Source: Lingula anatina
Taxonomy: Eukaryota > Animalia > Brachiopoda
Length of the DNA stretch: 64,000 nt
NCBI GenBank assembly: GCA_051362555.1
Contig: CM120646.1
Span: forward strand, 22,940,001 to 23,004,000
Direction of reading: 5' to 3'
The notes under the pieces are model-generated. The model made no database searches and was not told the DNA's origin. It was given only the letters and a program-made list of their open reading frames with translations. Below are positions 19,427 to 61,962 of the stretch, piece after piece. The position numbers and the translations under genes are program-made. Position 1 is the first letter of the stretch, and each line of letters starts with the position of its first letter.

Positions 19427-22003
19427 CTTTTTCTTCATCCCTTGTTTTGTGTTTCTTCTTGACACAGTAGGTGTAGGTGACACAGGCCAAGACAATAATC
19501 ACAATGACCCCCAGGATGGCCCCTATTATCCCCCCTATGGCCTCTCCAGATAGACCCCCCACTGTGGATCCAGTAGTTGGTGCTGAAATGAAGAAAAAAT
19601 TGTGGGTAATCAAGTCAACAAAAGCAGCATTTCAAATAAAAAGAAAAAAACTTTTGTAAACAAAATCCGGGTGTGTTGATTTAAAAAAAAGTGACTCCCT
19701 TTCATATCAACCAAGGAACTCAGCAGTAAAGTGTCAGAAGTGGTAAAATTATTTCTACTTACATGACAGTGTAATTCTCAGGACCTTGCTTGGTGGATCA
19801 TTCAACTGGTTCAAAATGTTACTGGCCTGGCACTCATAGTATCCAGGTTTCTGAATGTTATTCAGGTTAAGAACAGAGGAGTTATCGCGATTTCCACTTC
19901 GTGCTTCTCTGGTGTTGGATAGCTCTTCCCGAAAAAACCACTTGAAGTTGGGTTGAGGGTCACCAGTGGCTGAGCAAATGAGAGTGACGGCTGAACCTTT
20001 GACAAACTCCACACTGCCCATTGCTGAGTCTATGATGGGGAGGGCACCTGTGGTGGTATAGGTGATCTCAGGGTTGCTGGCAGCAGCTGAAATATTGTCA
20101 TGTTATTGTATCACAGTGTACAAGATTTTTGTCTAAAGTGAGGCATATCTAGACTTTGCCAGGACATAAATTTTTGCCGATTTTTAAAAAGCTTTGGTAG
20201 AACTATCCACTATTAACTGGCACAATCATTATGATAAATAAATGGTCAGGACAATCAAAATCACCATCAAGCTGGTGTGGCACATACATACATACAGATC
20301 AAAATTAAACTCCTTCCAGGGTTGAATTTATTTTAGCCAAATTACTGGATAATGTCAGTAAAATCAAAAGTCAAAACTTATTCAATGCTAAATTTCCTGA
20401 AAGAGGTACCATTTTTCCCCCATTTTCTTTCTGCATCATTGTAAACCAATTAGAATTTTAAGTTAAAGCTTTTCACTAGAACTATGTTAGCATGAGTACA
20501 GTACTGCAGCAAAATTCTTTCCTTGATGTACTTAACTGATTTCTGTTGATTTTTACTTACTCAGTGACACACTGGCCGACTTCTGTCCAATCATACATGT
20601 AAACTGTGCGCCATCATCAGAGGCTGAGACATCTACTCTCAGCTCACTCTGTCCATTATATGTACAACCATCACTATTCAGGACAGGGTCACTTGACTGT
20701 GCCTCTGAGGTCCTATTTTGTTGCTGACCATTCAGAGACCGGTACCATGTGATCCCCTTGGCTGGACGTCCAAGCTGACCAGAGCACATGAACTTTGTTG
20801 ACCCCTGGTCATTTAATTGCTGGGTGGTCAAGATAGGGTTTTCACTGGGCTCCACTGGAATATGTACACATATTTGCTTATACTAGCTATAGTACATTGT
20901 AATTGAATGAATGAAAAAATAGCAATCATAACCAAGAATATTGTACACAAACCATACAGACATCTGCAAAAGCTGCATTAAAATACAATTATTGAAATTT
21001 TTGTGAATTACTGTTATCTAAAGGTAAAAGCAGACATATATTTTCGTGTAATTTCTAAAAACTTAATTAATTCAGAAAAAAATTGAATTTTATGATTTTT
21101 CTCCACAAGGTATTCAGTATATATTCATGTAAATCTTTATTTTCTCTTGACGAAGCACAAATTTAAAATAATCCTCAATCCTCCCAGTTCAATTCAATTA
21201 GAAAGAAGTTAATATTATAATTTAAAGCAATAATAACTCTTCCTTTGAGATTCAAAATTCCGCAAGAAATACATTGTAAACAACGCATGCAAATATATTC
21301 TATTGCATTTTACCACTAAAACGGCCGTTATTGTAGTAAAACTAAAATTTGTGCTTGTCAATAGGGCTTTCGATGCCTTTCTTCCCTGTCGTTAAGGCAA
21401 CCGTTGCCAATGACGTTAGGGTGTCATGCGGATTCTCGCGTTCATTCGAGACCAAAATAACTTCTGGCGGCAAAAGCCTGATGCAATAGCAGACGTAAGT
21501 TGCGAGTTTTTGTACAGTGCGTCGGATAACGAAAAGCCAAGAATAGCACAGATAGCACACATTGTAGATATAAATGCATTTTGAGCAATAAGACAAATAT
21601 ATATTATGAATCTTATATTATTGTTATGGTGTTGTTGTTGTCTGCTTTTCCCGCGGTTTTAAGTAGGTCAACAGAAACTATCGCTCGATATTGTGTGACT
21701 ATGCAATGTCAGAGAGGGCTCCGTGAGTTAAAATCTCTTAAGAGATTTTAACAAAAAACCAAACGTTTAGGAAAAAAACCCTGGACCAACTTTGAATGCA
21801 GGAATGGGGTCGCTGACCATTGGTAAGTACGGGAAAATTGCCGTTTACTCGAGGAAAATCCAATTTTTGGCCAAAACGAAGAGTTATTATGACTTTAATG
21901 AAAACAAAAAAGATCCAACATTCAATTTTAACACACACGCTGGATGCTGCACCCCCCCTACACACACACAAACACTCACACACACACACTCTCTCTCTAT
22001 CTC

Positions 22004-22037
<34 letters not shown>

Positions 22038-22374
22038 TTGTAGACCTGTATACTAGTACGCCTGTGTCTGTTCACCTTGGATGATTCTTAGATATCTGGT
22101 TACCTGGAATACAGGTGTGCTCCCCAGGGGGTTATCTCTGAACAACAATAATATTTATTATACACTTCATCAGATTCCTAAAAATGGCACTTCCTAAGTG
22201 TCTTAACCAAAAATCTTATTAGAATATATCTAAAGTTACAGTTGATGCCAAAATTTTTAGGATCTTTTCCCTGATCGTAAACTAGGAAAGTGAAACAACT
22301 GAAGTTTGTTCCTGCTTCCTGGTATTGTGTGTCACAACTAATGCTTTATGTCTGGTTGTACCATTACTACGTCC

Positions 22375-22454
<80 letters not shown>

Positions 22455-24470
22455 ATCCAGTACTTCTGTAGCTAGGACTAAGCCTTTAGCTAGTGTGTAA
22501 AACTTATATTTAATTTGGCTAAAACACATAGTACTGTAGAGATAATCGAAAATGTCTGCAAATCTAACTCAATTTTTAATCTTAAAACTTATTTGGATAT
22601 AAATTAAGTTACATGGAAACACTAGCAATAATGCATTCACTGTTCTAGTAAGCATGTTAAGGAAACAAATAGATCATGGCACTACTGTATGCCAAGAGGT
22701 TAATATCTACATTTCTCCACTCACTTTAGCATCGGGTTTTTGGCCAAATGCTCTAAAAATTCTTTGACTTAGTTGAATCAAACTATAAAATTTTTAGCTG
22801 TCTTTGCACTGATTTAAGTAAAAAGATTTAAAAAAAAAAAATCACTCAAAGTATCTCTGTAGTCAGTACTTGACTTAAAAAAATCTTAAAGTGCATTCAG
22901 TATGATTTTATAATTTACCAATATTTCATGAAAGTATCAGTTATAGCCAAAATCATTTATATCTTGTATTGAAACAGTTGAGAAAAAAATTTTAAAAATC
23001 AAAATACATAGTGCTGTGTTTCATACTGAGTCACTTGCCTTTTCAAAATTTACCAGAAATGGCAAAGTCATTCTGATAATGCAGGTAAGTTTTTAATAAG
23101 ACAAACTGAAAATATGAAATTGTCTGTTGTTTTTTATGTTTAGTACATATCCTGCTTAGCAACTTACTAGCATCTTCATGAGAGAAAGAAAATTTTTAGT
23201 AAATTTTCTTATTCATTTATTATTTTCCAGCAAAAAAATTTACAGCCAAAAAATCCTGGATAGGATACCTTTACTAATAAACTGTGCAACTGAGTGTTTA
23301 TTGATCAGATCAGGGAAAATAAATGAATGTCATAAGCAGACAAGCAGCAGTGCCTCAGATCAGTTCAGACATGTGTTTGCTTTTATAACTCTGTCACTAC
23401 AACATTTGATGACAGCCACACATCCCTCACTGCCCCTCTCACTGACACAGAGACCAACCCCTGCAAAAATATTGTCTCACTGAACACTCACTTATGGTTC
23501 TCAATCTGTCCTAGAACCAAAGCTTTTAGTAAACTATCATAGCAGTAAATTATAATGCAGCGCAGAGAAGTGGGTGGTTATATACTATAAAATTTGTCAT
23601 TTTTCTCTCAATCAACATCCATTTATTAACAAATGTGCTTTCCCACAGTGGTATATTTTAAAATATATTTCTGTAATACATACCAAAGTATTTTCAAAAA
23701 TAAAAAAGACAGAAAGAAGAAAAGACAGAAAAACAAAAAGAAGGAAAGAAATGAAATACTTAAATATAAATAAATCAGGAATGATTACCTTTTATCATCA
23801 GCTGTACAGAGATAATCTCTTCTGTTCCTCTCACAGTCACCCTACATCTATACTCTCCCTCATCTCCTGGACATTGTGTCTGCTGGATATTAAGTGTGGC
23901 AGTTTTGGTACTCTCCGACAATGTCCCAGATAGTCTGTCCTTATCGGGGCTGGAGCTTAACTGATCACCATCAGGAAATTGTTGAAGTATTTGTTCAGTT
24001 CCCCTGAACCAGGCAACAACAACTAGTCTTTCTGATGCTGTATATGCGCACTGCAATGTTGTTGTCTCTCCAGGTATGCCAACAACTGTAGTTTGGGTTA
24101 TAATTCCAGAAACTAAAAACATAAAAGGAATATAATGAAATATTACAGTGGTATTTTAAACTTGGATTCTTAAATTATAATGCCATTATTCACATTCTAC
24201 CACATCTACTGTTTTACATTTAAATGAACACGCTTCTAACCTAAGACTCCAGCAAAGCCAAGGCTTAAGCGCAAACGTACGTTTTACTTCAAAATTAAAT
24301 CCTTCATATTTTCTAGTACTAATAATTAAAAGAAGGCGTTGATAAGAAATGTCAAATCCACCATTGCATATATACATTAACTCTAACTTACCTGCTAACA
24401 GCAATATTACGATGACCAGCAACGGCTCAAAATTGAATTTAGATCGACTTGATGATAAACAAACCGCCAT
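19427..24470 (-). CDS. Gene A, exons 1-5: single-pass Ig-superfamily receptor (signal peptide, V-type Ig, C2-like Ig, I-like Ig, TM)
   Basis: Exons 24470-24392 ([26 protein letters not shown]), 24112-23789 (V: LQC..W..DEGEYRC), 20854-20561 (Ig2: [14 protein letters not shown]), 20086-19763 (Ig3: [20 protein letters not shown]) and 19582-19427 (TM: [30 protein letters not shown]). All have AG/GT boundaries and phase-1 introns, one domain per exon, and the splice positions are conserved in paralogues B and C. Confidence 0.9.
22378..22451. repeat. (TA)n microsatellite
   Basis: Direct observation. Further (TA)n at 27404-27441 and 27543-27568; (TG)n/(G)n at 14802-14855; (CT)n(CA)n at 15129-15193 and 21960-22037; poly-T at 61913-61961. 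Confidence 0.95.
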
Positions 24471-24667
24471 TTGTCAACAGGAGCGTCGTTTACAAATTAA
24501 CAAATAAAATTAAGTTTGATCAGTTTCCAGCTCTCAATTCAGTGTAACAAACTAAATCTTGTAATATTCACTAGCTCCAGCATAAGTGATAGATCCTGTT
24601 AGTCCTTAAACTGTTGGGAGGTTCACACGGAAATAAACAGTGTGACCCGACTTCAACCTATTTTATG

Positions 24668-24685
24668 CAATAGATGGCGCTAAAG
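24668..24685 (+). promoter_or_regulatory. CTCF-like motif about 200 bp upstream of the gene A ATG; paralogous motif at 37008-37025
   Basis: CAATAGATGGCGCTA and (reverse) TACCAGATGGCGCCA resemble the bilaterian CTCF core. Motif match only. Confidence 0.35.
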
Positions 24686-25531
24686 GTAAGACAAGCTAGC
24701 CAGACACTTCATCACTTCCTAGAATGGTCATGATATTTTTTCATGACTTGCTTTCTTGTATTTTACTAATGTTTTTGGTTTCATTGATGGTTTGTATGAT
24801 TTTTTGCTCAGTTGTTTAATCAGTTTGGGTTTTATGACTTGGAAAAAAGTACATTTCCGGTCGAGAAGGTTACAAAACTGACCTAGTAATACTTTAATAA
24901 CTTTTAAAAATATTCGTTATTGTAGGTTAATGCAAGGAGTTATAACAGACCTTCTGTTATAACTCCTTGGTTAATGTTCAAGTATTGGTAATAACTCTGT
25001 TGCTCCATATGAGTCGGGTGAGTGCAAAGTAAACTCTCTAGATTTTGTAATTTATTGCACTGAAAATTGCAGATGGAAAAATCTACAAAAATGTACATGC
25101 TGTATTTTAATCTGTGTTGTCTTTTCTCAAGATTCGCCTCGACATTTTTGCGTGACCTTGATCTCTGATGACTTTCAAATCATTTTCAAATAAATGGTTA
25201 TTATGTCCTTGTATGTTGGAAGTGATACCTCTAGCAAGTGAAGTTTCTTACACCCCATTTCCATAGATTTTTAGATTGATCTATCCCTGTGGGGAGTCTC
25301 ACTAGATCACTGTCAGCTTGGCCGGCTTAAGCGTCTGTCCCGCCTACTAAAAGCTGTAAGGGGGTAATTAACTATGGTGTCCGCTCGGCTGACTGCAATT
25401 TAGCCTGAACCCCCAGGGAGTTAGGTCAATCTAAAACTTAATCTTTAGATCAATCTAAATCTCTGGGAAAGCACCCTAATTAGTTACCCAGTTAATTTTC
25501 ATGATATGCACAATGAATGATTTAGCTCGCT

Positions 25532-25795
25532 TAGGCTGAGTTCCCATACCTAGATAGATCTAACTGTGTCGATCTATCTCCAAGGGATTTTTTGCTAAAT
25601 TGCTTTCAGCTTAAGCAGCTTAGATGTCTGGCACGCCTACTGAAGCTGCTAAACAATAATTAATTACCCCCTAGCAGCTTCAGTAGGCATGATAGACATC
25701 TAAGCCGCTTCATTTGATTGCAATTTAGCGAGAATCCTATTTGAGATAGATTGATCCACAGTTAGTATGATATAGGGTCTGGGAACGCTCCCTTT
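25532..25795 (+). mobile_element. ~260-bp palindromic MITE family 2; other copies near 4650-4870, 13862-14120, 42808-43065
   Basis: Internal inverted repeat TTAGATGTCTGGCACGCCTACTGAAGCTGCTA / TAGCAGCTTCAGTAGGC..AGACATCTAAG, with TIRs related to family 1. Confidence 0.65.
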
Positions 25796-26668
25796 ATCTC
25801 CCCTATGCATTGGCATTCATTTTGGATTTCAGCACCATGCCATGTGGGGTTATGGCTTGGGCATACTTGAGGTTAAGTTGACTTATCACCTTTGTTCACA
25901 TTTTTCCTAATTTCAATTTTCTGGATTGAAAGTTACTATAATTGACATCATCTCTGTGAATTTTCAGGCAAATGTATGGAGAAATAAAAAATTGATGTGC
26001 ATAAGATAAATCAACTTTGTTTTATTTCACCCATTACCAAATGAAAATGTAGTTTTTAACAGGCCATAACTCTTGATACTGCATTTTGAATTTAAATGTA
26101 ATTCTATTTTCATTTAGCTTAAAATATTGGCTTTTTAAAAATGTATACTTTGTATGGGTGATTAAGGCAAACAAATAAATATGGCCAATTTACTGAGGTG
26201 ACCTGGCTTTTCAAGGCTAGTTCACAGAATTAATTGGGCACAGCAGAACTTTTTGGGTCAGCATTAACTGGATCCTACGGGGTTAAGTTAAATTTTCCAA
26301 GGTATATATATAAAACAAAGTCACAGTCACCTCAACCTGTCTATCTATAACAGGGTACCGAGAACTGTCAACTTTATTAACTTCATTCCATCACATTTAC
26401 AGCAAAGTATTCATCCTAGTGTTAGCTGACCTTGCAAGGAATTCAGTTTATTGGAATGTATTTCTGAATAACAACTCACTAGTTCTCTGAACAATAATTC
26501 ACTAGTTCACAAAAGACACAAAACAACTGTCACTTTTACTTTAAAAGTTAGTTATAGTATTGATAAACGAAGTATCACGTTTTCAACAATTAATATATTT
26601 AATTACAATCCATGTCTGCAAGGTTGTGTCAATGACCAAAATACAACGTTGAGTCAACAACACATTAT

Positions 26669-26763
26669 GACGGTGTGCACGGCGACAACGGCGATGGCGA
26701 CGACAGACGCAGGTGATGGCTATATAGTATATGTACAGACACATCTGTGTCTGTACATAAAAA
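26669..26763 (-). mobile_element. Solo terminus of the HINE-like element
   Basis: Same hairpin and GAC/GGC microsatellite end as 52010-52078. Confidence 0.6.
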
Positions 26764-27401
26764 GCTGCAAACACGATTCATCTCAATATCAGGAAGATTT
26801 TCCAAAAATTCCAGGACCATGGTCCAATTTATACTAGACTGTGTGTGTACAAGCGTGTGTCAACATGTTTACCACGATGCATAAAAACCAATTTGGAATC
26901 CTATATGTGTATCATTAATAAAAAGGGCAATCAAAGAATGTAAATAAAAGAAATAAGTATTAAAGCACAATACTTTCTTATTAAATATTATAATTTTATT
27001 TGTAAAATAGTGAAAGCTTCTAAAATATTAAATATTCCTGAGAAGCAGGAAGAGCAGAGCTGAAGTTTGGCACGTGCAATAAAATGCTGGACAATAGAGG
27101 CAATATACACAAAATAAGGCCTGTAGGCTGTACAGTGCTACCTTTTACAATTATAAATGGTGTAAAAAGCTAATAATAATTTTATGCTGGAATTAAGCCA
27201 CACTAAATTACCCCGTTTCATGAACCCATTATTAAAATATATACTTTGCTTAATTCATTTTTGAGAAACCAGAACTGACTGTCAAAACAAGGAAAATGGA
27301 TCTAATGTTATTGGCTCTTCATTCTATCAAAACATTTTTACATTAATTTTGGCTGCAATAAACCCTCAGATTTTTATTGTTTCCAATCATTATTCCAATT
27401 A

Positions 27402-27443
<42 letters not shown>

Positions 27444-28062
27444 CATTTTCTCAATAATGACATCAAGGGGGTTTCTTTGGGTCAGTTTGAGCTGACTCCC
27501 ATTGTCAGTGAATAAACCAGCCCTTCTCAGGGAATTATCATGATATATATATATATATATATATATATTATTATTAAGTACCAAAGAACTTTTACAGAGT
27601 CAAACTGTTTTTTATGAGGGTATTCAGAACAGTGTAGTAGTTACAGAATCCTGGATCAAATGTAGCCACCAACTTCAAACTTGCCGCTTAATTCCTGATT
27701 AGACACTGAATACATTCCCTGCGGGGATCACTCAACAAGTATTCTAATTGGGTCATCAATATTTGATTTGCGGTCTGCAGATCTGTTAGTTCCCAGTTCC
27801 GAATGCTCTATTTGTCACTTAAAACCTTTCTATAGCATAAGCCATATACAGTGCATTTGGTTTCTGTACATGTCACAAATGGCACCGCTACTAGATCCTG
27901 TCCCCATGTGGACATTTCAAACCTGTTTTGGCAGACTGGATATTATGCTTTAAATGCATGTATATATTCACTATGCCTATTTCGTTAAACACAAACAAAT
28001 ACTGGCCAAAGCTGCAATGTATACTAATGCCGAAGTGATACCACATGTATTTGAAATATTCT

Positions 28063-31000
28063 TCAACATTTTTCTTCCACATTGTACTTGTCCATGTCCT
28101 CGTACAGTTTCTCCTCAAACTTCCCCAGAGTAAGAACATCACTCTCCGAGGCCAGGAGGACATCCAAGGAGTTAACAATGTCTTTGAATGTTGACCTTGA
28201 ACTTGGGACTTCTTCCCAGCAGGACAACATGATGATGTACCTGGAACGATACACGACAAACAAGGACTATTATTGCTCATCATTCAGTAAAATTACACTT
28301 GACAAGCATTACAGTTTTTTAAACACATGGCAGGCCCGTAGCCAGGGGGGGGTTCGGGGGGTTAGAAAGAACCGCCCCTTTGTTGGGAAAATGTCCACTC
28401 TGGGTAAAATTTGATCTAGGTACTTGCAGTTTTTATGAGAAAAGGTCCACTTTTTCAGAAAAAGAACCCCCCTTTTGAAAACTGCTGGCTACAGGCCTGC
28501 ATGCATATATGTATATCAAAATTAACATTGCACACTCACATGCCCAGTGAACAGTGTGGTGGTTGGGGCATCTGGTATCCCTCAGTTACAGCTTCCATCA
28601 CCTGCTTGGCTGACATACCAGGATAGGGACTGGAACCTAACCAATATACAAGCAGCAGTGAGAATATTGTACTCACGTAAAATACTGTCACTGTCAGAAT
28701 AAAAGAAACTATACTTAACAATCTGATCAAGATTACTGAAGATACACATTGTGTGAATGAAAATTCAGTGTCAAATATTACGCAAATAATAATAATAATG
28801 ATAATATTAATATTCAGACAGATAATAATTATAATAACATTTATTAGAAACTTATTCAGTTACTATTTGCACCACATTCCTGGGATACAGAAGATATTTT
28901 ATTGAAAGGATACAAGATATTGAATAACAATCTGTAATTCTCAAAATTCAAATTCAGCGGTCATACATGGCATCATAAAATCATGATTACCTGTTGAACA
29001 ATTAGAACACAAGTGATCACAGTTTCATAATACTTGTTTGCTAAACATTCTTTCAATATAACAACAAGAACATTCCAATACTTTTATGAGCTTGACCATC
29101 TGGCAACATTCTTACCCAGTGTGACAATCTCCCAGAGCAAGACTCCATAGGCCCAGACATCAGACTGCGTGGAATATATATTGTCAAACAGAGCTTCTGG
29201 GGACATCCAGCGGATTGGCAAGCGACTCTGTTAAAGAGTAACATTAAGAAAAGGTATATCTGTTATGTGGTCATTATAACTGTCAGCTGATAGCACCTAC
29301 ACCTATATCTGTACATAAATTTATTTACATATCCTTACAATACATACAATGTGTGGTTATATGCAATTAACATACACTATGCAAGGGCAGATCCAGAGGT
29401 ATTTTCTGCCAGGCTTCCAAATTGTCTTTATTGATCTATCCCCCATTTTTGACAGTCTTCAGACAGAAAAAAATTAGATACCTGTCAATGTAAACTTGAA
29501 AATCTGATCGTCTTCTCTTCCAGAAGACCCAGAAGACGGCCTAAATCTGCGCCTGTACGGGTGTTATATCATATATATACCTCACAATATATAGGGATAA
29601 GTAATATAAATCATGTGCACTGAGCAGTAACACTTCTTGAAGTCTGCTAGTACTGATAATCGATAAAATAACTATCCAAGATTGCTAATGCCGAATTTCA
29701 GGTAAGAATTCAAAGTAACTTTTTTGGCTTTCATGTACAAAGGCGTTTACTAACCTGCGATTGTTTTATGTAAGTGTGACTTTCAATGACGTCCTTAGCA
29801 AAGCCAAAGTCAGAAATCTTGCAGGTTCTATCCTCTGCTACCAAAATGTTTCGTGCAGCAAGGTCTCGGTGAAGAATCTACAATGTAAATATTGAGATTG
29901 TTGATCTCACGGTGTAATGAAGATGTTGGCACATCTTATTTTCTTTTAAAGTTTATAAGAAAATTATCTTTAATGACTATATGAGGCAAAAATTGGTGAG
30001 ATGGAAAATGGACAAAATAAGCAATAGAAAGAATTAACTATTTTCATAAAACAATTGTTTATCCTAGCTTACCGCCATTGATGAAAGATATGACATTCCA
30101 TTGGCCACATCTGATGCAAACTTCATCAGATCACGTGGTGTCAAGGAGGAGCTGATCCCATGTAAATTACCATACAGCACTTTCTGTTTTGAACGGTCAT
30201 TTCGTAGGTAGTCCTGGAGATTTCCGTTTGGAAGGTACTCAACAATAATTAGTGGCACAGCTAAAACAAATAACTTCAATTTATTTAAAAAGAATATGTC
30301 AATTTATTTTAAGTTTGGCATGTTTACCACTTGCTCAGGTGTTCCACAGGAAGCTTTTGAAATTGCAAAAAAAAAATAAATAAAATAAAATAATAAAAAA
30401 TAATAATAATAATAATTAACAAAGCTATATGAATTCATTGCTTCATTTAAAGTGATTAGAAAATTTACAAAAAATTTAAAACTTTTATATTATATAACAT
30501 GTCTACATACCATCATCTCGAGTGCAGGATCCTAAAAGCTCGACCACGTTTGGGTGAGATTGGAGTTCCAGCATCACTTTCAGTTCTTTCATCATCTCAC
30601 TGTAGAGGGATATGTCACTTGTATCTACAAATATAAGTTTATCTTATTGAATGAAGTACATGCTGAAATCATCAGGTTTTTAATTGACCTGGAGCATCAA
30701 AAATATATGAAAAATGTTGGAATATTTACCCTTTGCAGTTTTAACTGCAGCAATGCTCCAATTCTGTTTTCCATCAAGGTTGAAAATGTTGCCCCTAAAG
30801 ACCTGACCAAAAGCCCCGCTTCCTATCTTTTCCATCAACTTGATATTCTGTCTTCTTATCTCCACATCTCTCTCCTGAATCTCTGCATACTGGGGCTCCT
30901 CCATTGGATTAAACTTTAAGTTTAAATTGGTATAAATATCAACATCAAGATATGGCACCAAAGCTGTCAAATGTACAGAGAAAAATTACTCAAAAAGTAG

Positions 31001-34000
31001 AAAATAATGTTGTACAAAATAGTTTATTTTATCAATACAGAAGCAATAATACATTATGCTTAGCAGCAAAGTTAACACCAAATTTTAATTAAACATAATC
31101 TGAAAAATGAGAATTTCACTAAAATGCATTACCTCCAGAAAACAAACCGTTTTTTTTTACTCAAGCTGTATCTAGGTCTAGTCAAACAAACAGGCTTTTT
31201 TTGTCAGAAAAATGTCTGCACTGGGTAAAATTTGATCTATGAACACAAAGGCTTAATGGCAAAAGGTATATTGTTTCAGGAAAAGAACCCCTCCCCCCCT
31301 CTCCCACTTTGAAACTGTTGGCTACAGGCCTGAATCATAATTTCACAAACTCTTACACAGCATTACACGACATTACGTAACATTACCACTTGATGTTCTG
31401 TAATGAAGTTGGTGTTGACAGGCCATTCATATGGCTCTTCTTTACTCCTTAGCTACAAAAGTACCCGGTAGGAAAACGAATGTTAACATATCATTCTTTT
31501 AAAAATTGCAATCAAATGAAATCAATAACAATATAATGATGGCAATATAATTATTTTCAGTCTTTATTCCTTAAAAATTTCAGTAGACTTTATCACATAT
31601 AAAATTTACAAAAATTTATAGATAAGAGTGTTAAATTAGTGTGTGTATGTATGCATGTGTGTGTGTGCGCGTGCATTCTCAGTTCCTTTAGATCTTTCAG
31701 TGATTTCTGTGCTCCTATTTGTCTTAGGTAAATTGGCAGCTTGTTCCACTAGCTGTGCTGGTGCAGCTATACAAAATGATATGTCACCATATGTCAATGA
31801 TATTCCTTCTATTTTACCAGTAACTACCACATGGCAATTATGTAACATTACCACTTGCTGTTCTGCACTGAGGTTTCTGTTGACAGGCCTTTTGTATGTC
31901 TCTTCATTACTCCTTAGCTGCGAAAGCAGGAAAACAAGTGTTAATATTTCATTCATTAATAATTCGTTCTTTTAAAATTACCATCAAATGATGTCAATAA
32001 TATTCATCCTACAATATTTCACCTGTAAACTATCACTTTTAATTTAAAAAATATACTGTAAGTAATAGCTGTTATCACAAGCAACTCATTACACAAGGAC
32101 TGTACATGTACTATAATTCACAGACTTTATGACCAATCTTTAATCCAGGCCTTGCATTTTTGAGTATGACATTCACCTCTCCACTCACAAAAGTCTGAAG
32201 CTCTTCAACTTCATCCTCTGCATTGTTTTCCTGTGACACTACAATGACAAATAGATGGGTAAGACACATGCATCTTCAAATGAGGAAGGGGGGATCAGGG
32301 AAAATTTGGGAGCAAGGTGTATCAGCATCAGAATAGGAGGAAATGAACTAGGTGAAGTACTTTAATTACAGAGAAAAATCTGAAAAGAAATGCATTTTAA
32401 AATATTAATTAATTTTTAAGTGAATGAATCTGACATGGCCATATTGGGTGAAGAACTTTCTAAAATTATTGAAAGGTCCATTTTCAAGTATGACAAGAAA
32501 AAACTTTCTTCAACGGTTAATTGTTTTCACTAAAGACCAACAAAATTTTCAAGTTTTTACTTTAATCGGGGTAGGGGGCATAGGGAAACACATAGCCTTC
32601 TCTGTATGATTCACCGAAAGCAAGCAATTTGCTAATACATTATCTCCAATCAACTTAGTCTACTACCAGTCATCTCAAATAGCAGCCCCAAGGTCAAATC
32701 TTAAAACTTAAATACCATAGTTACTTGAACAAAACAAATTTTAAAGGTAAAGTTAATTTTTAGGAAAGTTTTTTTACATAATCAAAATCAGAGGTGTACA
32801 GTAAATGGGTATAATACTAGTATGCAACACACATTTGGACCCAACTTTAGGTCTGTTAGTTCTTTGCCTATATAATAAGAAAATGTCCTAACATTTCCAA
32901 CACAGAGTGTAAGACGCTACTCCCCCCCCCCCCCCCCCCCCCCCCGACTCAAACAACTCCCAATTAACTTAAAAAATTTTCTAACAACAAATTTTGAGTT
33001 AAAAAACAAAACCTTATTTTGGTTCATACTGTTAACAATTACAGTTCACAAGAGAAACTACCAATATGATAAATGAGAAACATTCCAATATTGTTTTCAT
33101 GATTGAAATTATGCACGTCAATAAGGTGCATAATGAGATTAAATTATCAATTGATTTCAATTTTATCAATTTTTCTAGCTGGATTCAAAATTACTTTTAA
33201 ATACCTTTTTCTTCTCCTCTTGTTTCTTGTTTCTTCTTGATGCAGTAGGTGTAGGTGACATAAGCCAAGACAATAATCACAATGACCCCCAGGATGGTCC
33301 CTATTATCCCCCCTAGGGCCTCACCAGATAGACCCCCCACTGTGGCCCCAGTAGCTTGCTCTGAAATGATGTCAAGTAAAAAAATGGTATTCCCCATCAC
33401 AACAGGTTTATTCTGAGCATTAATTTAAATTATTGTAACAAGTCAAAATGTCTTTGGAAATACTGACCTGAAATCCAACTACCATCACTTATCAATAATT
33501 ACCACCTCAAATTCACATATATAACTTATTGTTATTGTTAAAATACCACTATCCCAAGTCTGTTGGAGGAAATCCCAGTAACTGACATGTACATGAGAAA
33601 AGTTAACCAAGTAGTAAATCATTAAAGTACCACTTTTACCTGAAAGTGAAATTCTCAAGACCTTGCTTGGTGGATCATTCAACTGGTTCAAAATGTTACT
33701 GGCCTGACACTCATAGTATCCAGGTTTCTGAATGTTATTCAGGTTAAGAACAGAGGAGTTATCACGATTTCCGCTTCGTGCTTCTCTGGTGTTGGATAGC
33801 TCTTCTCGATAAAACCACTTGAAGTTAGGTTGAGGGTCACCAGTGGCTGAGCAAATGAGAGTGACGGCTGAACCTTTGACAAACTCAACACTGCCCATTG
33901 CTGAGTCTATGATGGGGAGGGCACCTGTGGTGGTATAGGTGATCTCAGGGTTGCTGGCAGCAGCTGAAATATTGTAATGTAAAGAACCCTTGGGTGTTGA

Positions 34001-36436
34001 ATGATACAATCACCATGAAAGAGGCATACAGAAAATATATACATAAATATTATGTGAGCATAATTGTCACTTTAGTAAATGGAGTATTAGCAATGCAGAT
34101 GTAAACAGCAGTTAAACTAATTAATTTGTCCTGAATTACCATGACTGCCAATTTTACTATAAATACCAATATTAACTAAGGGATACCTGACACAAATTAG
34201 TTGACATATATAACAAAGAGGAAATGATAGACTTTCAACAAGATGGTAAAAAATGCAGCATAATTTCAGTTTTAATTTGATAAAATTTTATCCAAGATCA
34301 ATACAAGGGCTAAGATCAAAAAAGGAAGATCAAAGATTAGTTCGTAATTTTTTATATAAGAAAAAAAAAGCTGTTTACTCCAGGAATATCCATCAAATTG
34401 TAGGCATTTGCATACATGCATTTGACCTTACGGTCAGTCATGTTTGTATCTTGAAAAAGTTCTTATTTTTTCTAATTCAGGTCTTAAACACAACAAAACC
34501 CTTTAATTAAAGTTGACATGAAGCATATCTACATGCAGTGTTGTTACATATTGTATCTTTTACTTACTCAGTGACACACTGGCCGACTTCTGTCCAATCA
34601 TACATGTAAACTGTGCACCATCATCAGAGGCCGAGACATCTACTCTTAGCTCACTCTGTCCATTATATGTGCAACCATCACTGTTCAGGACAGGGTCACT
34701 AGACTGAGCCTCTGAGGTCCTATTTTGTTGCTGACTGTTCAGAGTCTGGTACCATGTGATCCCCTTGGCTGGACGTCCTAGCTGACCAGAGCACATAAAC
34801 TTTGTTGACCCCTGGTCATTTAATTGTTGGGTGGTCAAGACAGGGTTTTCACTGGGCTCAACTATAATATATACACACATATATATTTTTACTATATATT
34901 TAATAGTTGGGTATTCAAGACAAGAACTTCACTGGGCTCCACTCATATAATAGGAATAAATATACTAGTATGGATGTTAACTTGATTTGCTTATAAAGTG
35001 CAACAGCATTTTCTAGCTGATAGCAAATTACATTGTATGTATATACCTACTGAATGAGTGATCTTTGAAAAGTTTTTTTGAAAATCTATAAAAATTTTTT
35101 TTAAATATTTATCTTAATTGTTTAGCTTTGAAAATATCTGAATCAATCAAATAATTATGCTACATAAATCTCTATTAAATAGACCTGTTCTGTCCTTAGG
35201 TAGCTGTGTCTCTGTCCTTTAAATTATCACAATTTCTAATTGTCTGTTGGTGATTTTTAACTAATCACAGCACTAAATATGTTTTGACTAAAAAAATCCT
35301 TTTGTTAATATATAGTGATGAGGAGAATGTGCAATATACTGGTAAGTGTTTTAGGTTTTGTAGTTTAAAAAAAAAAAACTTAAAATACAAGCATATAATA
35401 CAGACATTTCATTAAAAAGCAACTACTGTAACTGTTTTTTAGCTTTCACTTCAATGTTAGGACATATAAACACTTCAAGTCCAGTGTTATATGCAAAGAA
35501 AAAAAAGTTGCTCAGTTATGTTTCTTATTTAAATAACCATTTAAACTGGTTCTCAATTAATAAGCATAATATAAAGAAACCATGATGTTACCTTTTATCA
35601 CCAGCTCTTGTGAATAGGTTTCTTTTGGAGCTCCTCTCACATTCACTCTACACCTATACTGTCCCTCATCTCCTGGACATTGTGTTTGCTGGATATTTAA
35701 TGTGGTAGTTTTGGTACTTTCTGACAATGTTCCAGATAGTCTGGCCTTATCAGGGCCAAAGCTATATTGTGCACCATCAGGATATAGTTCAAAAATATTC
35801 TCAGAGCCTTTGTACCAGCCAACAACAGCTAATGTTCCTGATGCTGTATATGTACACTGCAATGTTGTTGTTTCTCCAGGTACGCCAACAACTGTAGTTT
35901 GGGTTACAATTCCAGAAACTAAAAACATAAAAGGCATATATATTTGAACTCGAGACAAAGGTATTTAAGATTTGGAATCTTTAACAAAAATATGTAGAAT
36001 ATGTACATGTAACGTTATATAATGATTAGATAAAAATAGGGAAAATGCATTTCAAAATGCATTCCTATTGACGGTTCTAATACGTGCCCAGCAGACAAAC
36101 GACATTGATTCACCGTTGAATCAACGTTAATTTTGGTGGATCTTGTTACGTTGAAACAAAGTAGAATCAATGTCGTTTGCCTGCAGGGCGCTAACGCATG
36201 AATTTTCGTGCTAAGTCAACTCAAGGGCCAACAGTCATGTACCTCTTCTTCTGTGATTATAAATCCTTTGCTAATCACAATTTGAAAAGATCACGTACAT
36301 TAGAAGGAAATGCAACATCGATCATAATTGCGAGTATATTAATTAACTCTAACTTACCTGCTAACAGCAAGATTACGATGACAAACAACGGTTCAAAACT
36401 GAATTTAGATTGACTTGATAAACAAAAAAGAGCCAT
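28063..36436 (-). CDS. Gene B: Ig-domain receptor tyrosine kinase (V-C2-I ectodomain, TM, Cad96Ca/Stitcher-like, RET/FGFR-related kinase), about 789 aa, 15 coding exons
   Basis: Exons 36436-36358, 35918-35592, 34861-34568, 33963-33640, 33360-33205, 32238-32177, 31917-31852, 31452-31387, 30913-30730, 30624-30511, 30260-30073, 29877-29755, 29227-29116, 28636-28540 and 28240-28063 total 2370 nt in one frame. Kinase motifs: [64 protein letters not shown]. The features [14 protein letters not shown] and C-terminal EEKC resemble Cad96Ca-type kinases as I recall them. The 30913 acceptor (aag) is inferred from phase and conservation with D. Confidence 0.9.
28331..28499. mobile_element. MITE with TIR CAGGCCCGTAGCCAG / CTGGCTACAGGCCTG
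   Basis: Present in the last intron of B and absent at the equivalent site in D (about 59570). Decayed relatives lie near 31190-31332 and 61960-62080. Confidence 0.7.
29383..29555. mobile_element. MITE with GGGCAGATCCAG / ATCTGCGCCTG-type ends
   Basis: Related fragments at 42255-42382 and 60470-60500 (reverse); similar ends at 6513-6676. Confidence 0.5.
36087..36188. mobile_element. ~100-bp hairpin MITE with CCCAGCAGACAAACGACATTGATTC TIR (EnSpm/CACTA-like) in gene B intron 1
   Basis: The right end GAATCAATGTCGTTTGCCTGCAGGG is a near-perfect reverse complement of the left end. Confidence 0.6.
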
Positions 36437-36819: not shown

Positions 36820-39800
36820 AAGAAATGTACTTCTTTTCCAAGAAGATACAAAACCCAATTGACAAAAATTTATACAAATTACCAATGACACCTTAAAAAT
36901 GAGTAAAAATACAAGAAATGAAGCTATGAAAAAGTATTTTAGCATTCCCAGGGGAAATACTGCGACATGCTTTGTGAAAAAAGTGTCTGGCTAGCTTGCC
37001 TTATCCTGTGGCGCCATCTGGTACTGCATTAAAATAGGTTGAAGCAGGGTCTGAAATTGCTTGTCCTCAGTGGGTCATGTTTTCAGTGGGTAGGTGCCCG
37101 CTAATGCTAAAGAGTTTATACAGTATGTAATCGCCAATAGAAAAAAATACATCTCCAATTTTTCTAGCAGCTTTTTGGGTTGCATTCTAAATCTTGTAAA
37201 TATATACTGTACTGTGAAAACTTGGGCGCCTACCAAGCTTCACAAAAGTTCACATACAAGTAATTTAAAAAATACTGGGACAAAATTTTACACTACACTA
37301 AGACTTGGACATAATTATGTCCAAGACTAAGATGATGGTGCTCTACTAAAACGGGCATACCTAGATGAATTAATACACGTTGATGTACTGTTAAACACTA
37401 AAGCCATAGTATATCATGGAGTACGTGCCAATTCAAGGAGTAAAGGCAATTTATGTAGAAGTTTGGTGTGTGTGCTGGTTAATTTGTGGGTTAAGTGGTT
37501 AATGTGGTTTATATTTCCAAAGGGTATGCTGTTTTTTGCTTTTTTTTCAGCATATTTTATCCACATTTTCTAGATATCTACATGTATTTTACCTGTAGTG
37601 CATAATTTAAAACTAATGGTGATTGTTACTGACAAATATATCTGTATTGCTTGGAGACAGTTCCCACAGATATTTAGATGGATCTATCCCCCTGGGGAGT
37701 CTCACTTGATTGCTGTCAGCTTAACCAGCTTAAATGTCTGCCTCGCCTATTTAAAGCTGTAAGGGGGTAATTAACTTGTGTGCACGCTCGGCTCCCAGAA
37801 GCTGACAGCAATTTAGCATGAACCCCCAGGGAGTTAGGCCGATCCAGATGGATCGATCATAAACTGTGGAAACCCAGTCTTGGAGTGTAGTGTGATATCG
37901 ATGACTATGTTTTGCTGTTAGTATGGGAGATGTCATGTTGAGCCTTTCTGTAAAGAAAAAAAGAGAAAAGATTTCCTTAAAGAGTTTTTGTTGTAATATA
38001 TTAGACAAATCATCACAGCAGTACGTAGTTGTAATTGTTGTTGTTGCCAATGTTGATACACGCAGTTGAGGTTGTATTCAGAAGACACCTGCAACAGTGA
38101 TTATAATCTGTTAAATAAGCATTATGTAATATTGCATTAAATTGATAAAAAATAATGTTTTGTGTAGTGCCACTATACAAAATTCTTAAAAGGAAAACTG
38201 TGTTCCTTGTTATTTTTTAACTTACAAGAATGATTGACATACAGCTCAAATTGGCAAACCAGCTTGACTGGATAATTTTTCTTTCTTGTTATCTTTCTTG
38301 TTATCTTGTTTTTGTATTATTGCTATTATATCTCTGTACATTTTCACCGGCTCATTCTGGTGTAGAAAGTATGAATAAAGCATATAAACTATTTAGCCTC
38401 AGCAGGCTCCAACCCACTGAAGACATACATGACCCACTGAGGATCGACAGGCATTTTGGGTACTGTTGGGTTGAAGTCAGGTCACAATACATGTTTATTT
38501 CAATTTGAACCTCCTAACAGTTTAATGACTATTAGTAACAGGATTTATCACTTATGCTGGAATTAGTGAACATTATAGGATTTAGTTTGCTACACTAGAT
38601 TGAGAGTTTGGAACTGATCAAACGCTAACTTTATTTGTTAATTTGCAGACGACATTCCTGTTGAAAAATGGCTGTTTGTTGTTTATCATCAAGTCAATCT
38701 AAATTCAATTTTGAACCATTGTTTGTCATCGTACTCTTGCTGTTAGCAGGTAAGTTAGAGTTAATATGCAGGGAATAATGAATGTAGCATATCGCACTAA
38801 TGTGATCTTTTCAAATTGTAATTAGTAAAGGATTTAACTGCAGAAGAAAAATATGCAGTGCTAATTGAATTACTAATACATATTGCCCTGATTTGCTGGA
38901 GTTTCAGGTAAGAAGTGGATGCATGTTTAAATAATGTAATATTGATTTTAGAATTCAGGGATTTGTTTTACAACTCACCCAGACTTCTTCCCAAGCAGTC
39001 TTAGGGAAAACGTTGATATAAAAATTTGGGTAGGATCAACAGTTTAAAAGTTTGGTGGTACCAGTTCAAACTTTTACCCATCCTGTGCATAGGATCAGCA
39101 AAGGCCAAAAGTTTTGGCCATTTCTGATGACCATTCGATTTCAAGGATTCAGATTTTTGTCAGGTACTTTTAAGTTACTTTGCTCTTTACCATGAGGAAA
39201 AAAAGTTTACAGTGTACATAACATATTTTTTTAAGTTACCAAATCTTAAATACCTTTTTCTTATATTTCAAATATATACCTTTTATGTTTCTAGTTTCTG
39301 GAAATGGATCACAAAATACAGTTGTTGGCATACCTGGAGAAACAACAACATTGCAGTGCACATATTCAGCATCAGGAAGATTAAATGATGTCAGCTGGTT
39401 CAAGGGCACTCAGCAACTACTTTCACAATATCGAGATGGTGAACAATTTCTCTTTGGCCCTGATAAGGCCAGACTATCTGGGACATTGTCAGAAAGTACC
39501 AAAACTTCTACACTTAATATCCAGCAGACACAATGTCCAGGAGATGAGGGACAGTATAGGTGTGAGGTGAATGTGAGAGGAGCACCAGAAGAGATAAATT
39601 TACTACAGCTGATGATAAAAGGTGATCAATCATGATTTATTTATTTATATTTCATTTCTTCCTGACTTTCTTTTTCTCTTTCTGTCTCTCTTTATTTACT
39701 TCTGAAAACATTTAACTCTTTATTATTTTTCATTTGACTCCCATTAAAAAGCTTTGGGAGTCGTCATGACTCTCAAAATAAAAAGCCTAGGGGAAACCCT

Positions 39801-42800: not shown

Positions 42801-43597
42801 GCAGTCTTAGAGACCATTCTCAGACCCTATTGTACTAACTTTGGGTCGAACTATCTCCAAGGAGATTCTAGCTTAATTGCAATTAACTTAAGCGACTTAG
42901 ACGTCTGTCACACCAGCTGAAGCTGGAAGGGGTATAACAATCATTTAGCAGCTTTATCAGGCGTACCAGACATCTAAGTCACATAAGCTGAAAACAATTT
43001 AGTGAGAAACCCCATAGAGATGGACCGATCCTGTTAGATCAATCTCGGCATGGAAATCCAGTCTTAGTTTATACGTACCAGATAGCCCTGACCTGTATTT
43101 ATTTTTCTTATTAAAAAAAAAAAATCCTAATGATTGTTTAAGATGATAGTATATAGTTCTACCATAGCTTTTTAAAAATCAGCAAAGATTTGTGTCATGG
43201 TTTGAATCCAGATATGCCTCATTTTAGACAAAAATATGGTTTTCTGTGATACAATGACACTGCAATATTTCAGCTGCTGCCAGCAACCCTGAGATCACCT
43301 ATACCACCACAGGTGCCCTCCCCATCATAGACTCAGCAATGGGCAGTGTGGAGTTTGTCAAAGGTTCAGCCGTCACTCTCATTTGCTCAGCCACTGGTGA
43401 CCCTCAACCTAAATTCAAGTGGTTTTATCGTGAAGAGCTATCCAACACCAGAGAAGCACGAAGCGGAAATCGTGATAACTCGTCTGTTCTTAATCTTTAT
43501 TACATTCAGAAACCTGGATACTATGAATGTCAGGCCAGTAACATTTTGAACCAGTTGAACAATCTTCCAAGCAAGGTCCTGAGAATTACACTGTCCT
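36820..43597 (+). repeat. Inverted segmental duplication of the gene A upstream region and ectodomain (about 24860-19763)
   Basis: Reverse-complement similarity covers the upstream region (36820-37050 vs 24650-24860; 38470-38670 vs 24470-24660), exons, and introns 2-3 (e.g. 40110-40394 vs 23178-23483). It ends at the 3' edge of the Ig3 exon. Confidence 0.85.
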
Positions 43598-43617
43598 CCC
43601 CCGCCACATGGTGGTAA
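38668..43617 (+). CDS. Gene C: inverted paralogue encoding signal peptide plus three Ig domains with no TM (about 348 aa; secreted form or truncated copy)
   Basis: Exons 38668-38749, 39295-39621, 41914-42207 and 43274-43617 total 1047 nt in frame. The donor found after Ig3 in A and B is absent here (ctgtcctccccc), so translation reads on to SPATWW*. I saw no TM exon downstream on the plus strand. Confidence 0.8.
42597..43065. mobile_element. Abutting MITE family 1 and family 2 pair in gene C intron 3
   Basis: The two elements join at a shared TTA (about 42807) and are absent from the homologous intron of gene A. Confidence 0.6.
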
Positions 43618-45457: not shown

Positions 45458-45470
45458 AGTACAGTTAATA

Positions 45471-50578: not shown

Positions 50579-50579
50579 A

Positions 50580-56471: not shown

Positions 56472-56473
56472 TA

Positions 56474-61911: not shown

Positions 61912-61962
<51 letters not shown>

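Follow-up and report, generated by a model that had tools for sequence, protein, structure and literature searches.

Short-tract gene conversion probably underlies the exon-bounded similarity of two linked immunoglobulin-like receptor genes in Lingula anatina

How can two neighbouring genes be nearly identical in their exons while the introns between these exons are unrelated? This question is raised by genes A and B, which lie on the same strand, about 4 kb from each other, in a 64,000-nt stretch of the Lingula anatina genome (GCA_051362555.1, CM120646.1, positions 22,940,001-23,004,000, forward strand), the whole of which was analyzed and is called the window below. A preliminary description of this DNA had proposed that an old A/B duplication is being homogenised by exon-limited gene conversion, from which the V exon largely escapes. 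We examined the exons, the introns and their borders in A and B, and compared them with two further genes of the window, C and D (Table 1).

Judged from their sequences, genes A to D form a V/C2/I-set receptor family specific to Lingula anatina. No relative above 33% identity was found outside this species in the protein database, the nearest one being 33% identical. According to Pfam, the ectodomain consists of V-set, C2-set_2 and I-set domains in B and of FN3, C2-set_2 and I-set domains in D, where FN3 takes the place of V; the C2-set is CD80-like and the transmembrane (TM) peptide is devoid of charged residues. The family members differ by their tails. B and D carry a FGFR/RET-like tyrosine kinase, which in B is detected by Pfam (PK_Tyr_Ser-Thr, 3e-90), matches the structures of FGFR1 and RET with E-values of 1e-77 to 1e-79 (7.8e-79 for FGFR1 8jqi, RET being equally close) and displays the HRDLAARN and DFG motifs, both found in P0002. 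The predicted last exon of A encodes IVYADL and TEYAEI, which we take from the motif consensus to be ITIM-like and ITSM-like, respectively, with a putative function. C possesses no tail, as no donor follows its Ig3 exon and the frame ends with SSPATWW and a stop codon. On this basis the annotation can be corrected: "FGFR3" and "cell adhesion molecule 3-like" would be names given to members of one Lingula-specific family, with a common ectodomain and alternative tails that are ITIM/ITSM-like, kinase or absent.

Table 1. Positions of the receptor gene features within the window.
Feature	Coordinates	Strand	Evidence
Gene A predicted last exon	3664..3792	-	100% tblastn match, P0001 residues 442-484; upstream AG
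Gene A transmembrane exon	19427..19582	-	RNA joint 19582/19763
Gene A Ig3 (I-set) exon, phase 1	19763..20086	-	Pfam Ig_3/I-set; RNA joints 20086/20561, 19582/19763
Gene A Ig2 (C2-set_2) exon	20561..20854	-	Pfam C2-set_2; RNA joint 20086/20561
Gene A V-set exon	23789..24112	-	tblastn, P0001 residues 28-134 identical; AG/GT borders
Gene A leader exon, coding part	24392..24470	-	Translation (26 residues), then GTAAGT
Gene B juxtamembrane and tyrosine-kinase exons with introns	28066..32239	-	tblastn P0002; Pfam; collinear with D; RNA joints 31452/31852, 29877/30073, 29227/29755
Gene B transmembrane exon	33205..33360	-	Borders and alignment; 8 of 51 residues differ from RefSeq model P0002
Gene B Ig3 exon	33640..33963	-	RNA joint 33963/34568; 100% match, P0002 residues 235-341
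Gene B Ig2 exon	34568..34861	-	RNA joint 33963/34568
Ig2 exon 5'-end relic inside B intron 2	34898..34941	-	35-36/48 identical to A, B and C Ig2 exon starts
Gene B V-set exon	35592..35918	-	RNA joint 35918/36358; identical to P0002
Gene B leader exon, coding part	36358..36436	-	RNA joint 35918/36358; translation
Gene C, inverted partial copy of A	38668..43608	+	tblastn P0004; exon coordinates
Gene C exons: leader; V; Ig2; Ig3	38668-38749; 39295-39621; 41914-42207; 43274-43595	+	
Gene D, kinase half only; Ig exons beyond window end	59292..64000	-	tblastn P0006; collinear with B including introns

The near-identity of the Ig2 and Ig3 exons, including most third codon positions, was described correctly and with exact coordinates. 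Indeed, A and B share 313 of 324 nucleotides in Ig3 (96.6%) and 278 of 294 in Ig2 (94.6%), with RNA joints at the borders, and among A, B and C the third position varies in only 14 of 97 codons of Ig2 and 14 of 106 codons of Ig3. The A-B identity amounts to 138/156 (88.5%) in the TM exon and 267/324 (82.4%) in V; at the protein level it is 96-98% in Ig2/Ig3 and 72% in V. A and C are similarly close (305/322 in Ig3, 283/294 in Ig2), and in the leader exons of A, B and C the alignment begins some 135 nt before the ATG, non-coding part included.

The introns behave quite differently. Intron 2, given as about 2.9 kb in A and 0.73 kb in B, measures 2,934 and 730 nt, intron 3 474 and 604 nt, and intron 4 180 and 279 nt, respectively. 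A sensitive blastn search (word 7) returned no A-B HSP at E<1e-3 for introns 3 and 4 and, for intron 2, only a TA-rich low-complexity match of 78 nt (3%); B and C introns 2-4 gave no alignment either. High identity between the A and B introns would have counted against the proposal of conversion, and none was seen in introns 2-4. Intron 1 is an exception to this lack of relatedness: A, B and C have the same 16 nt at its start, and of its 440 nt in B about 190 can be aligned with C (some 99 nt following exon 1 and some 94 nt preceding the V exon). We also measured anchored ungapped A-B identity in 10-nt steps outside the splice sites. Upstream of V, Ig2 and Ig3, 7-10 of 10 nucleotides are identical in the first step and 7-9 of 10 in the second (19/20 before V, 17/20 before Ig3, 26/37 before Ig2), while downstream 10/10 is kept at the Ig2 donor alone. 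Further out, identity falls to 15-45%, like that of unrelated sequences, so that the exon-bounded collapse of similarity, with identity at chance 10-20 nt outside the splice sites and, around exon 1 and V, at up to about 100 nt, is real. Finally, B intron 2 contains a relic of an Ig2 exon start with its own AG, followed by a 37-nt spacer that resembles the end of A intron 2 (26/37 identical) and then by the live Ig2 exon.

We then considered silent divergence. Between A and B, the NG86 dS is 0.37 in V, 0.19 in Ig2, 0.12 in Ig3 and 0.15 in TM, and divergence at 4-fold sites is 0.12 in V, 0.14 in Ig2 and 0.11 in Ig3, which represents only 4-6 differences per exon. The 4-fold values of 0.06-0.12 in V and 0.10-0.14 in Ig2/Ig3 are not distinguishable (Fisher p 0.73-1.0), whereas dN is 0.16 in V and 0.008-0.025 in Ig2/Ig3. 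Likewise, the variable sites at codon positions 1/2/3 number 26/25/28 in V versus 4/2/14 in Ig2 and 5/2/14 in Ig3. The V framework codons have a pS of 0.14-0.19 and the variable segments alone reach 0.20-0.36, with a pN/pS of 0.6-1.07; dN/dS in Ig2/Ig3 is 0.07-0.16. The idea that V largely escapes homogenisation is thus not supported at silent sites: its 4-fold divergence is that of Ig2 and Ig3, and its additional differences are amino-acid replacements. Sites specific to A, B and C are distributed in a star-like manner (28/25/21 in V, 6/10/5 in Ig2, 5/4/11 in Ig3), and A-B and A-C have equal silent divergence.

Two ordinary duplications within the same 64 kb, A-C and B-D, display the introns that one would expect, and A-B breaks this rule. 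Between A and C, 73-80% of the shorter intron can be aligned, with K of 0.15-0.22. In agreement with the preliminary description, B aligns through its introns with D (27442-33197 with 58580-63977, 69-88% identity), this being limited to the kinase half, as the other part of D lies outside the window. Alignment to the D region was tested for six B introns and covers 10-99% of their length, with K of 0.085-0.19; in some it covers only 10-42%, for which either a high-copy repeat (bin 29177-29757) or an exon duplication specific to B provides the explanation. Since dS in the B-D kinase exons is 0.32 (200 codons), silent sites in this family are not slower than introns, and duplicates at the silent divergence of A-B keep alignable introns. 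At 0.11-0.14, the A-B introns should therefore still align, which argues that the exons of B are younger than its introns. The histories are indeed discordant: in the introns A goes with C, in the kinase half B goes with D (91% amino-acid identity, for 80% in Ig3, which is 98% identical between B and A), and the exons draw a three-way star.

We thus propose that the leader, V, Ig2, Ig3 and TM exons of B, 82-97% identical to A and C within non-aligning introns, are probably islands written in by short-tract interlocus gene conversion. B would represent an older kinase-type lineage whose ectodomain exons swapped sequence with the A/C lineage around the time of the A-C duplication. The tracts would have stopped where homology stopped and, once the introns had diverged, would have been confined to exons; later on, purifying selection may have held Ig2/Ig3 while replacements built up in V. 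The Ig2-start relic, 37 nt upstream of the live exon, could be a scar left when B received one of these patches. The shared intron flanks exceed the splice consensus and point to tracts at the DNA level. Homogenisation by exon-limited conversion is in this sense retained, as the exon similarity goes beyond what the introns allow, but an ongoing process is not supported, as the divergence of the islands is close to that of the A-C duplication. The A-B silent divergence, similar in every exon, could result from a single event or equally well from several, and no recent exchange is visible. When third positions were submitted to a max-gap permutation, none of the three exons reached significance (P=0.83 in V, 0.95 in Ig2 and 0.30 in Ig3); owing to the star shape of the exon tree, long runs private to one pair are lacking. 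GC3 is 0.43-0.53 in Ig2/Ig3/TM, 0.25-0.34 in V and 0.41-0.60 in the B kinase exons; being no higher in Ig2/Ig3/TM than in the kinase exons, it gives no specific signature of biased conversion. In the parts of PMC2720389 used here, co-converted introns are the usual criterion that separates conversion from selection; by construction, an exon-bounded case such as A-B offers none.

One may wonder whether the pattern is created by the assembly, near-identical exons being misplaced in two loci by haplotype collapse or chimeric joining. Some irregularities point in this direction: the window's base at position 20738 is found in no contig of four DNA runs, and differences from the RefSeq models are patchy, with 8 of 51 TM residues but none of the 311 residues of V+Ig2+Ig3 in B and, in A, none of the 107 V residues, three in Ig2, two in Ig3 and three in TM. 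However, in both genes exons and introns are bridged by contigs of independent DNA runs from three studies: these span B intron 3 whole (33946-34587) with 0 differences, B intron 2 with its relic (34830-35679) and A intron 3 (20069-20580). RNA reads also show that exons of A and B are transcribed and spliced, the joints between Ig2 and Ig3 in both genes and between Ig3 and TM in A being all CT..AC, i.e. GT..AG on the minus strand. The A and B loci are thus correctly assembled, and an artefact has a negligible probability. At 5 of the 8 differences in A and 4 of the 8 in B, the RefSeq model shows the state of a paralogue in the window, which is only suggestive of gene conversion. Another scenario is a plain duplication of the age of A-C, after which deletions and insertions removed and replaced the intron interiors of B, the exons being leftover homology. 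The star-shaped exon tree, the equal silent divergence of A-B and A-C and the alignable remainder of intron 1 between B and C are all in its favor, and the less alignable B-D introns tell that turnover does occur here. Yet these particular introns have their own explanation in the repeat and the exon duplication, and the scenario needs the replacement of all of B introns 2, 3 and 4 (1,613 nt) where A-C keep most of theirs. Moreover, no source of the new sequence is visible, B introns 2-4 having a single-copy-like depth in four DNA runs and no match elsewhere in the window, and the lower B-D identity in Ig3 than in the kinase is left unexplained. We consider this scenario unlikely.

The exons could also descend from an old duplication with no exchange at all and have been frozen by purifying selection extending to synonymous sites, through splicing enhancers or codon usage. 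The strong constraint on Ig2/Ig3, the fact that the shared flanks are largely splice signals and the absence of any significant conversion-tract statistic would agree with this. Nevertheless, the family does change at silent sites, as the B-D kinase dS exceeds the intron K; 4-fold divergence is as low in V as in Ig2/Ig3 despite the unconserved V protein, and the non-coding stretch upstream of the ATG is alignable too. Frozen exons are, in our opinion, quite improbable. Finally, a reverse-transcribed, spliced mRNA of A/C type could have served as template, in which case similarity would end at the borders of every exon. It is true that all five exons, 5' untranslated part included, are alike at a similar silent divergence, that an element bearing a reverse transcriptase lies within the cluster, and that C Ig3 runs straight into four codons (SPAT) resembling the start of the TM-exon peptide in the RefSeq A model. 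But a spliced cDNA could not have carried the shared intron sequence, i.e. the 16 nt after exon 1, the matches before Ig2 and Ig3, and those before V, where weaker similarity extends to about 90 nt. In addition, cDNA-templated repair is expected to remove introns, none of which is missing from B. We find this route very improbable.

Conversion at the DNA level being the preferred reading, A-B would offer a clean case of concerted evolution bounded by exons, with its calibration provided internally, the mechanism in itself being already known. It is conceivable, if rather doubtful, that the locus constitutes an independent lophotrochozoan paired-receptor system in which A would be inhibitory, B and D would be kinase activators replacing ITAM-coupled ones and C a tail-less decoy, the Ig2-Ig3 stalk being kept near-identical by conversion and V driven apart by selection for different ligands. 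Provided that the tails signal in the way indicated by their motifs, the logic of paired receptors would not be confined to vertebrates, and the activating arm would here be a kinase. This would bear on how often paired systems arise and on whether homogenisation of the stalk together with diversification of V is general.

A parallel can be drawn with several known systems. No Siglec appears among the best 60 of the 106 PDB sequences matched by the ectodomain, where the matches are generic IgSF proteins (PTPRD, SYG-2, CD276, SIRP-alpha, CADM4). The genes are thus not Siglecs, even if the predicted tail of A, with its putative ITIM plus ITIM-like/ITSM motif, recalls this family. Siglecs are characterised by a sialic-acid-binding arginine and atypical V-set disulphides; the V exon here has an ordinary LQC...YRC cysteine pair. 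In paired receptors, the activating member is short-tailed and recruits an ITAM adaptor through a charged TM residue; with a complete tyrosine-kinase domain in the tail and an uncharged TM peptide, B and D are not classical activating members. Their FGFR-type kinase domain and RefSeq name relate them to the FGFR/RET receptors. However, FGFR ectodomains contain three I-set domains with an acid box, unlike the V-set (FN3 in D), CD80-like C2-set and I-set found here.

Regarding concerted evolution, the preliminary description invoked the paired Siglec genes. SIGLEC11 and SIGLEC16 are neighbouring inhibitory and activating receptor genes whose ectodomain parts are kept alike by repeated conversion, and the consulted sections of PMC5701461 define the converted region as upstream sequence plus the first eight exons, V-set included, with introns used as neutral sites. 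This is the opposite of the pattern in the Lingula genes, whose intron interiors are unrelated. BMP8A/B, DDX19A/B and TUBG1/2 are paralogues kept similar by conversion long after duplication; as presented in the portion of PMC2720389 cited here, they have at least one intron >97% identical together with both flanking exons and a raised GC3, neither of which is seen in A-B. The closest precedent is rather given by the CEACAM1-related paired receptors of mammals (bovine CEACAM1/33/35), for which the relevant passages of PMC7042247 describe conversion in exons, introns being affected to a minor extent. There, the homogenised exon is the ligand-binding, V-like N exon, whereas in Lingula the membrane-proximal Ig2/Ig3 are most alike and V has 72% protein identity; the partner tail is here a tyrosine kinase and not an ITAM-like motif. 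The likeness, which is one of pattern and is not shown by sequence, is that in both cases linked IgSF genes with different cytoplasmic signalling tails have ectodomain exons that evolve in concert.

RNA reads agree with the exon borders of the preliminary description, which proved exact: joints linking window positions 20086 and 20561, 19582 and 19763, 33963 and 34568, and 35918 and 36358 were found in three studies, each of them with GT..AG in the orientation of the gene. Between the receptor genes A and B, similarity collapses outside the exons, as had been described. Anchored at the splice sites, the upstream flanks of the V (V-set), Ig2 (C2-set) and Ig3 (I-set) exons are identical at 7-10 of 10 positions over nt 1-10 and at 7-9 of 10 over nt 11-20, and reach chance level beyond 20 nt; downstream, 10/10 is kept at the Ig2 donor only. 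Intron 2 is indeed far longer in A. Word-7 blastn at E<1e-3 gave zero HSPs between A and B for introns 3 and 4, and a TA-rich low-complexity match only for intron 2. The flanking introns are thus unrelated, as claimed, for introns 2-4. Intron 1 is partly shared: A, B and C have its initial 16 nt in common, alignment of B with C extends over about 99 nt following exon 1 and over about 94 nt preceding V, and about 135 nt 5' of the ATG are alignable among the three genes. Since flanks are partly shared around the exons, the anatomy of B is one of five homology islands, each made of an exon together with flanking sequence of 4 to about 130 nt.

Features of the receptor cluster, with A-B comparisons (TM, transmembrane)
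Feature	Position	Strand	Content or A-B comparison
Gene A	3664-24470	minus	leader, V-set, CD80-like C2-set, I-set and TM exons; predicted tail (model mapping)
A predicted last tail exon	3664-3792	minus	encodes IVYADL and TEYAEI
Gene B	28066-36436	minus	ectodomain as in A, plus FGFR/RET-like tyrosine kinase
B segment directly before kinase domain	30731-30913	minus	aligned with A tail motif
B juxtamembrane exons	31387-31452; 31849-31917	minus	similar peptides, 22 residues from each
B TM exon	33205-33360	minus
Indel in B intron after TM exon	32422-32541		118-nt skip, one G instead
Gene C	38668-43608	plus	inverted copy of A leader-to-Ig3 part
C end	43585-43625	plus	Ig3 exon without GT donor
Gene D	59292 to beyond 64000	minus	kinase half alone within window
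High-depth bins	21043-22204; 25110-25690; 26272-26852; 28015-28595; 29177-29757		high-copy repeats
Repeat block downstream of C	44256-52078	both	e.g. 44256-45457 vs 52078-50919, 84% identical
Retroelement between C and D	52235-58356
Inverted repeat, 1.9 kb	52235-54064 vs 58356-56472		96.7% identical
Reverse-transcriptase ORFs	54651-56502	minus	frame-broken; Pfam RVT_1
Ig3 exon			A-B identity 313/324
Ig2 exon			A-B identity 278/294
TM exon			A-B identity 138/156
V exon			A-B identity 267/324
Intron 2			A 2,934 nt, B 730 nt
Intron 3			A 474 nt, B 604 nt
Intron 4			A 180 nt, B 279 nt

The cluster itself provides a calibration of this contrast. Between A and C, 73-80% of the shorter intron is alignable, with K(JC) of 0.15-0.22. 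As described, the introns of B and D align readily; the whole kinase half is common to both genes, introns included, with K of 0.085-0.19 in the tested introns and, in the exons, dS of 0.32 and dN of 0.063 (200 codons). Silent sites are therefore not slower than introns in this family, and duplicates at dS of about 0.3 keep readily alignable introns. Between A and B, 4-fold sites differ at 4/33 in V, 6/42 in Ig2 and 5/47 in Ig3, and NG86 dS is 0.37, 0.19 and 0.12, respectively, and 0.15 in TM. The A-B exons are less diverged than the B-D yardstick, yet introns 2-4 are without any alignment, a pattern that requires more than selection. Moreover, the introns group A with C, whereas exon site patterns form a three-way star (A-/B-/C-specific sites: V 28/25/21, Ig2 6/10/5, Ig3 5/4/11), and the kinase of B is 91% identical to that of D at the protein level while its Ig3 is 80% identical to D versus 98% to A. 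Altogether, the exon/intron contrast and these discordant histories lead us to conclude that B is a mosaic, its ectodomain exons being younger than the introns around them.

Neither repeats nor assembly account for this pattern. Repeat masking as the cause of the A-B intron non-alignment was rejected: B introns 2-4 and A introns 3-4 show single-copy-like depth in four DNA runs from three studies, and among introns 2-4 of both genes the only high-copy block is that at 21043-22204, in A intron 2. Within the window, B introns 3 and 4 have no match elsewhere, and B intron 2 matches Ig2 exon starts only, via the relic described below. Misassembly was likewise rejected: independent contigs cover the whole of B intron 3 with 0 differences, and others run across the exon-intron borders at B intron 2 and A intron 3.

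More flanking sequence is shared than the splice consensus would account for (19/20 nt preceding V, 17/20 preceding Ig3, 26/37 preceding Ig2 and 16 nt following exon 1), so the exchange took place at the DNA level and not via spliced cDNA. B intron 2 contains, 37 nt upstream of the live Ig2 exon, the relic of another Ig2 exon start, which is 44 nt long and preceded by an AG. Of the 48 exon-part columns aligned, 35-36 are identical to the three live Ig2 exons; the relic reads EPSEV..., as does the D model, and the 37 nt separating it from the live exon resemble the end of A intron 2. We infer that a patch was pasted into B here and that the relic is its scar. Interlocus gene conversion would act through short tracts, ending where homology ends, and we regard it, with moderate confidence, as the best explanation. 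Of the Siglec-like, exon-limited conversion first proposed, exon similarity beyond the intron expectation and gene conversion as its best explanation are retained; the Siglec model, the escape of V and ongoing homogenisation are not.

Indeed, V does not differ from Ig2/Ig3 in 4-fold divergence (0.06-0.12 vs 0.10-0.14; Fisher p 0.73-1.0), contrary to the view that V largely escapes. Framework codons of V have pS of 0.14-0.19, and its variable segments alone reach 0.20-0.36, with pN of 0.21-0.22 and pN/pS of 0.6-1.07. Variable sites at codon positions 1/2/3 number 26/25/28 in V, 4/2/14 in Ig2 and 5/2/14 in Ig3. Because silent divergence is equal and replacements differ, V is similar in age to the other exons, from which it is set apart by its selection regime: replacement is fast in V, and constraint on Ig2/Ig3 is strong (dN/dS 0.07-0.16). 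On the other hand, the V proteins of A, B, C and the unlinked model P0007 are equidistant (72-75%), whereas the Ig3 proteins of A, B, C and the model P0005 cluster at 93-98%, versus 80% for D and P0007; this is one point in favour of the preliminary description on V.

That the exons are still being homogenised is only a possibility: silent divergence is much the same across exons and roughly that of the A-C duplication, which a single bout of conversion would explain just as well as a process still under way. Only 1 site varies within the first 136 nt of Ig3, and a within-exon tract test (max-gap permutation, third positions) was not significant (P 0.30-0.95; Ig3, P=0.30). GC3 as a signature of biased conversion was not discriminating. 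The window departs from the RefSeq models in patches, with 12 of the 21 differences showing the state of a window paralogue: in B, 8/51 residues differ in TM, four of these RefSeq states being those of A, and 0/311 in V+Ig2+Ig3; in A, 0/107 differ in V and 3, 2 and 3 in Ig2, Ig3 and TM. These hint at ongoing exchange, though they may also be model or assembly differences. Among 30 exonic variants from RNA reads or DNA contigs, 17 carry the base of a window paralogue, but this may be cross-mapping (C and other paralogues lie outside the mapped stretch, 150-nt reads are unassignable in identical stretches and DNA contigs break within exons), and they were thus unused as evidence.

Some RNA joints link the two genes. 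B Ig2 is joined to A Ig3 (34568 to 20086) by 40, 4 and 19 reads in three runs, and A Ig2 to B Ig3 (20561 to 33963) by 4 reads, as read-through splicing from B into A or trans-splicing would produce. The longest shorter-side flanks are 73-74 nt and 45 nt, respectively, and A and B are identical over Ig3 nt 1-76, first differing at position 77. We thus do not favour such splicing; the joints are probably due to placement ambiguity. In one RNA run (X11), A TM, Ig3 and Ig2 have depths of 21-31 and A V and leader about 0 (98% likeness); a V-to-Ig2 joint is listed for neither A nor B. At 20610, 20640 and 20834, every read on A Ig2 has the B/C base. What is expressed may be another allele or paralogue.

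A search with the Ig3 exon peptide matched seven NCBI Lingula anatina models at 79-98% identity and nothing else. With Ig2+Ig3, the same set was found without P0004, the short model of C, and the next match was a snail hemicentin-like protein (33% identical). Six of the seven models sit on one RefSeq scaffold of about 593 kb. The RefSeq names "FGFR3" and "cell adhesion molecule 3-like" obscure a single lineage-specific family. No Siglec occurs among the best 60 of 106 PDB sequence matches of the ectodomain, and Siglec membership was rejected. Word searches of a limited literature collection found nothing on this Lingula receptor family.

Gene C lacks a splice donor 3' of Ig3 and meets a stop nine codons further (...RITLSSPATWW*), where SPAT matches the beginning of the peptide encoded by the TM exon in the RefSeq A model (SSPATG); A-C homology stops at 19765/43595. 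Judged from sequence, it looks as though the Ig3 exon ran directly into the start of the TM exon, with no intron between them. Similar juxtamembrane exons occur twice in B, and the D and P0005 models have a single one; this is a B-specific internal exon duplication. In the family alignment, the ITIM-like VEGIVYADLQ of A aligns with ten residues of the kinase genes directly before the kinase domain; the A tail exon may derive from the juxtamembrane exon of a kinase-type gene.

Elsewhere, DNA-contig depth reaches 100 to 10,000 times that of neighbouring bins in five blocks, which are high-copy repeats, one within A intron 2 and two within introns of the B kinase half. The retroelement between C and D comprises reverse-transcriptase ORFs enclosed by the inverted repeat. 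The block downstream of C holds mutually similar repeats in both orientations and tandem arrays of period 159-161 and 111. The 118-nt skip in B, present in 16 and 3 RNA reads as well as in contigs from each of the four DNA runs, is an indel polymorphism and not an intron.

The process proposed here is already known; the family is undescribed and lineage-specific. A parallel can be drawn with paired receptors, whose conversion is well documented, as in Siglec-11/16 (PMC5701461) and the bovine CEACAM1 paralogues (PMC7042247). In Siglec-11/16, the similar, converted region comprises upstream sequence and the first eight exons, V-set included, and its intronic sites served as neutral sites (PMC5701461). 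For the CEACAM1 paralogues, conversion is reported for exons, and for introns only to a minor extent (PMC7042247), which makes them the closer precedent for the Lingula locus. Surveys of long-lived concerted pairs require co-converted introns (PMC2720389), which the Lingula locus lacks. What is unusual in this locus is that the intron interiors are wholly unrelated, that homogenisation is strongest in the stalk and not in the V domain, and that the partner of the ITIM/ITSM-like gene is a receptor tyrosine kinase.
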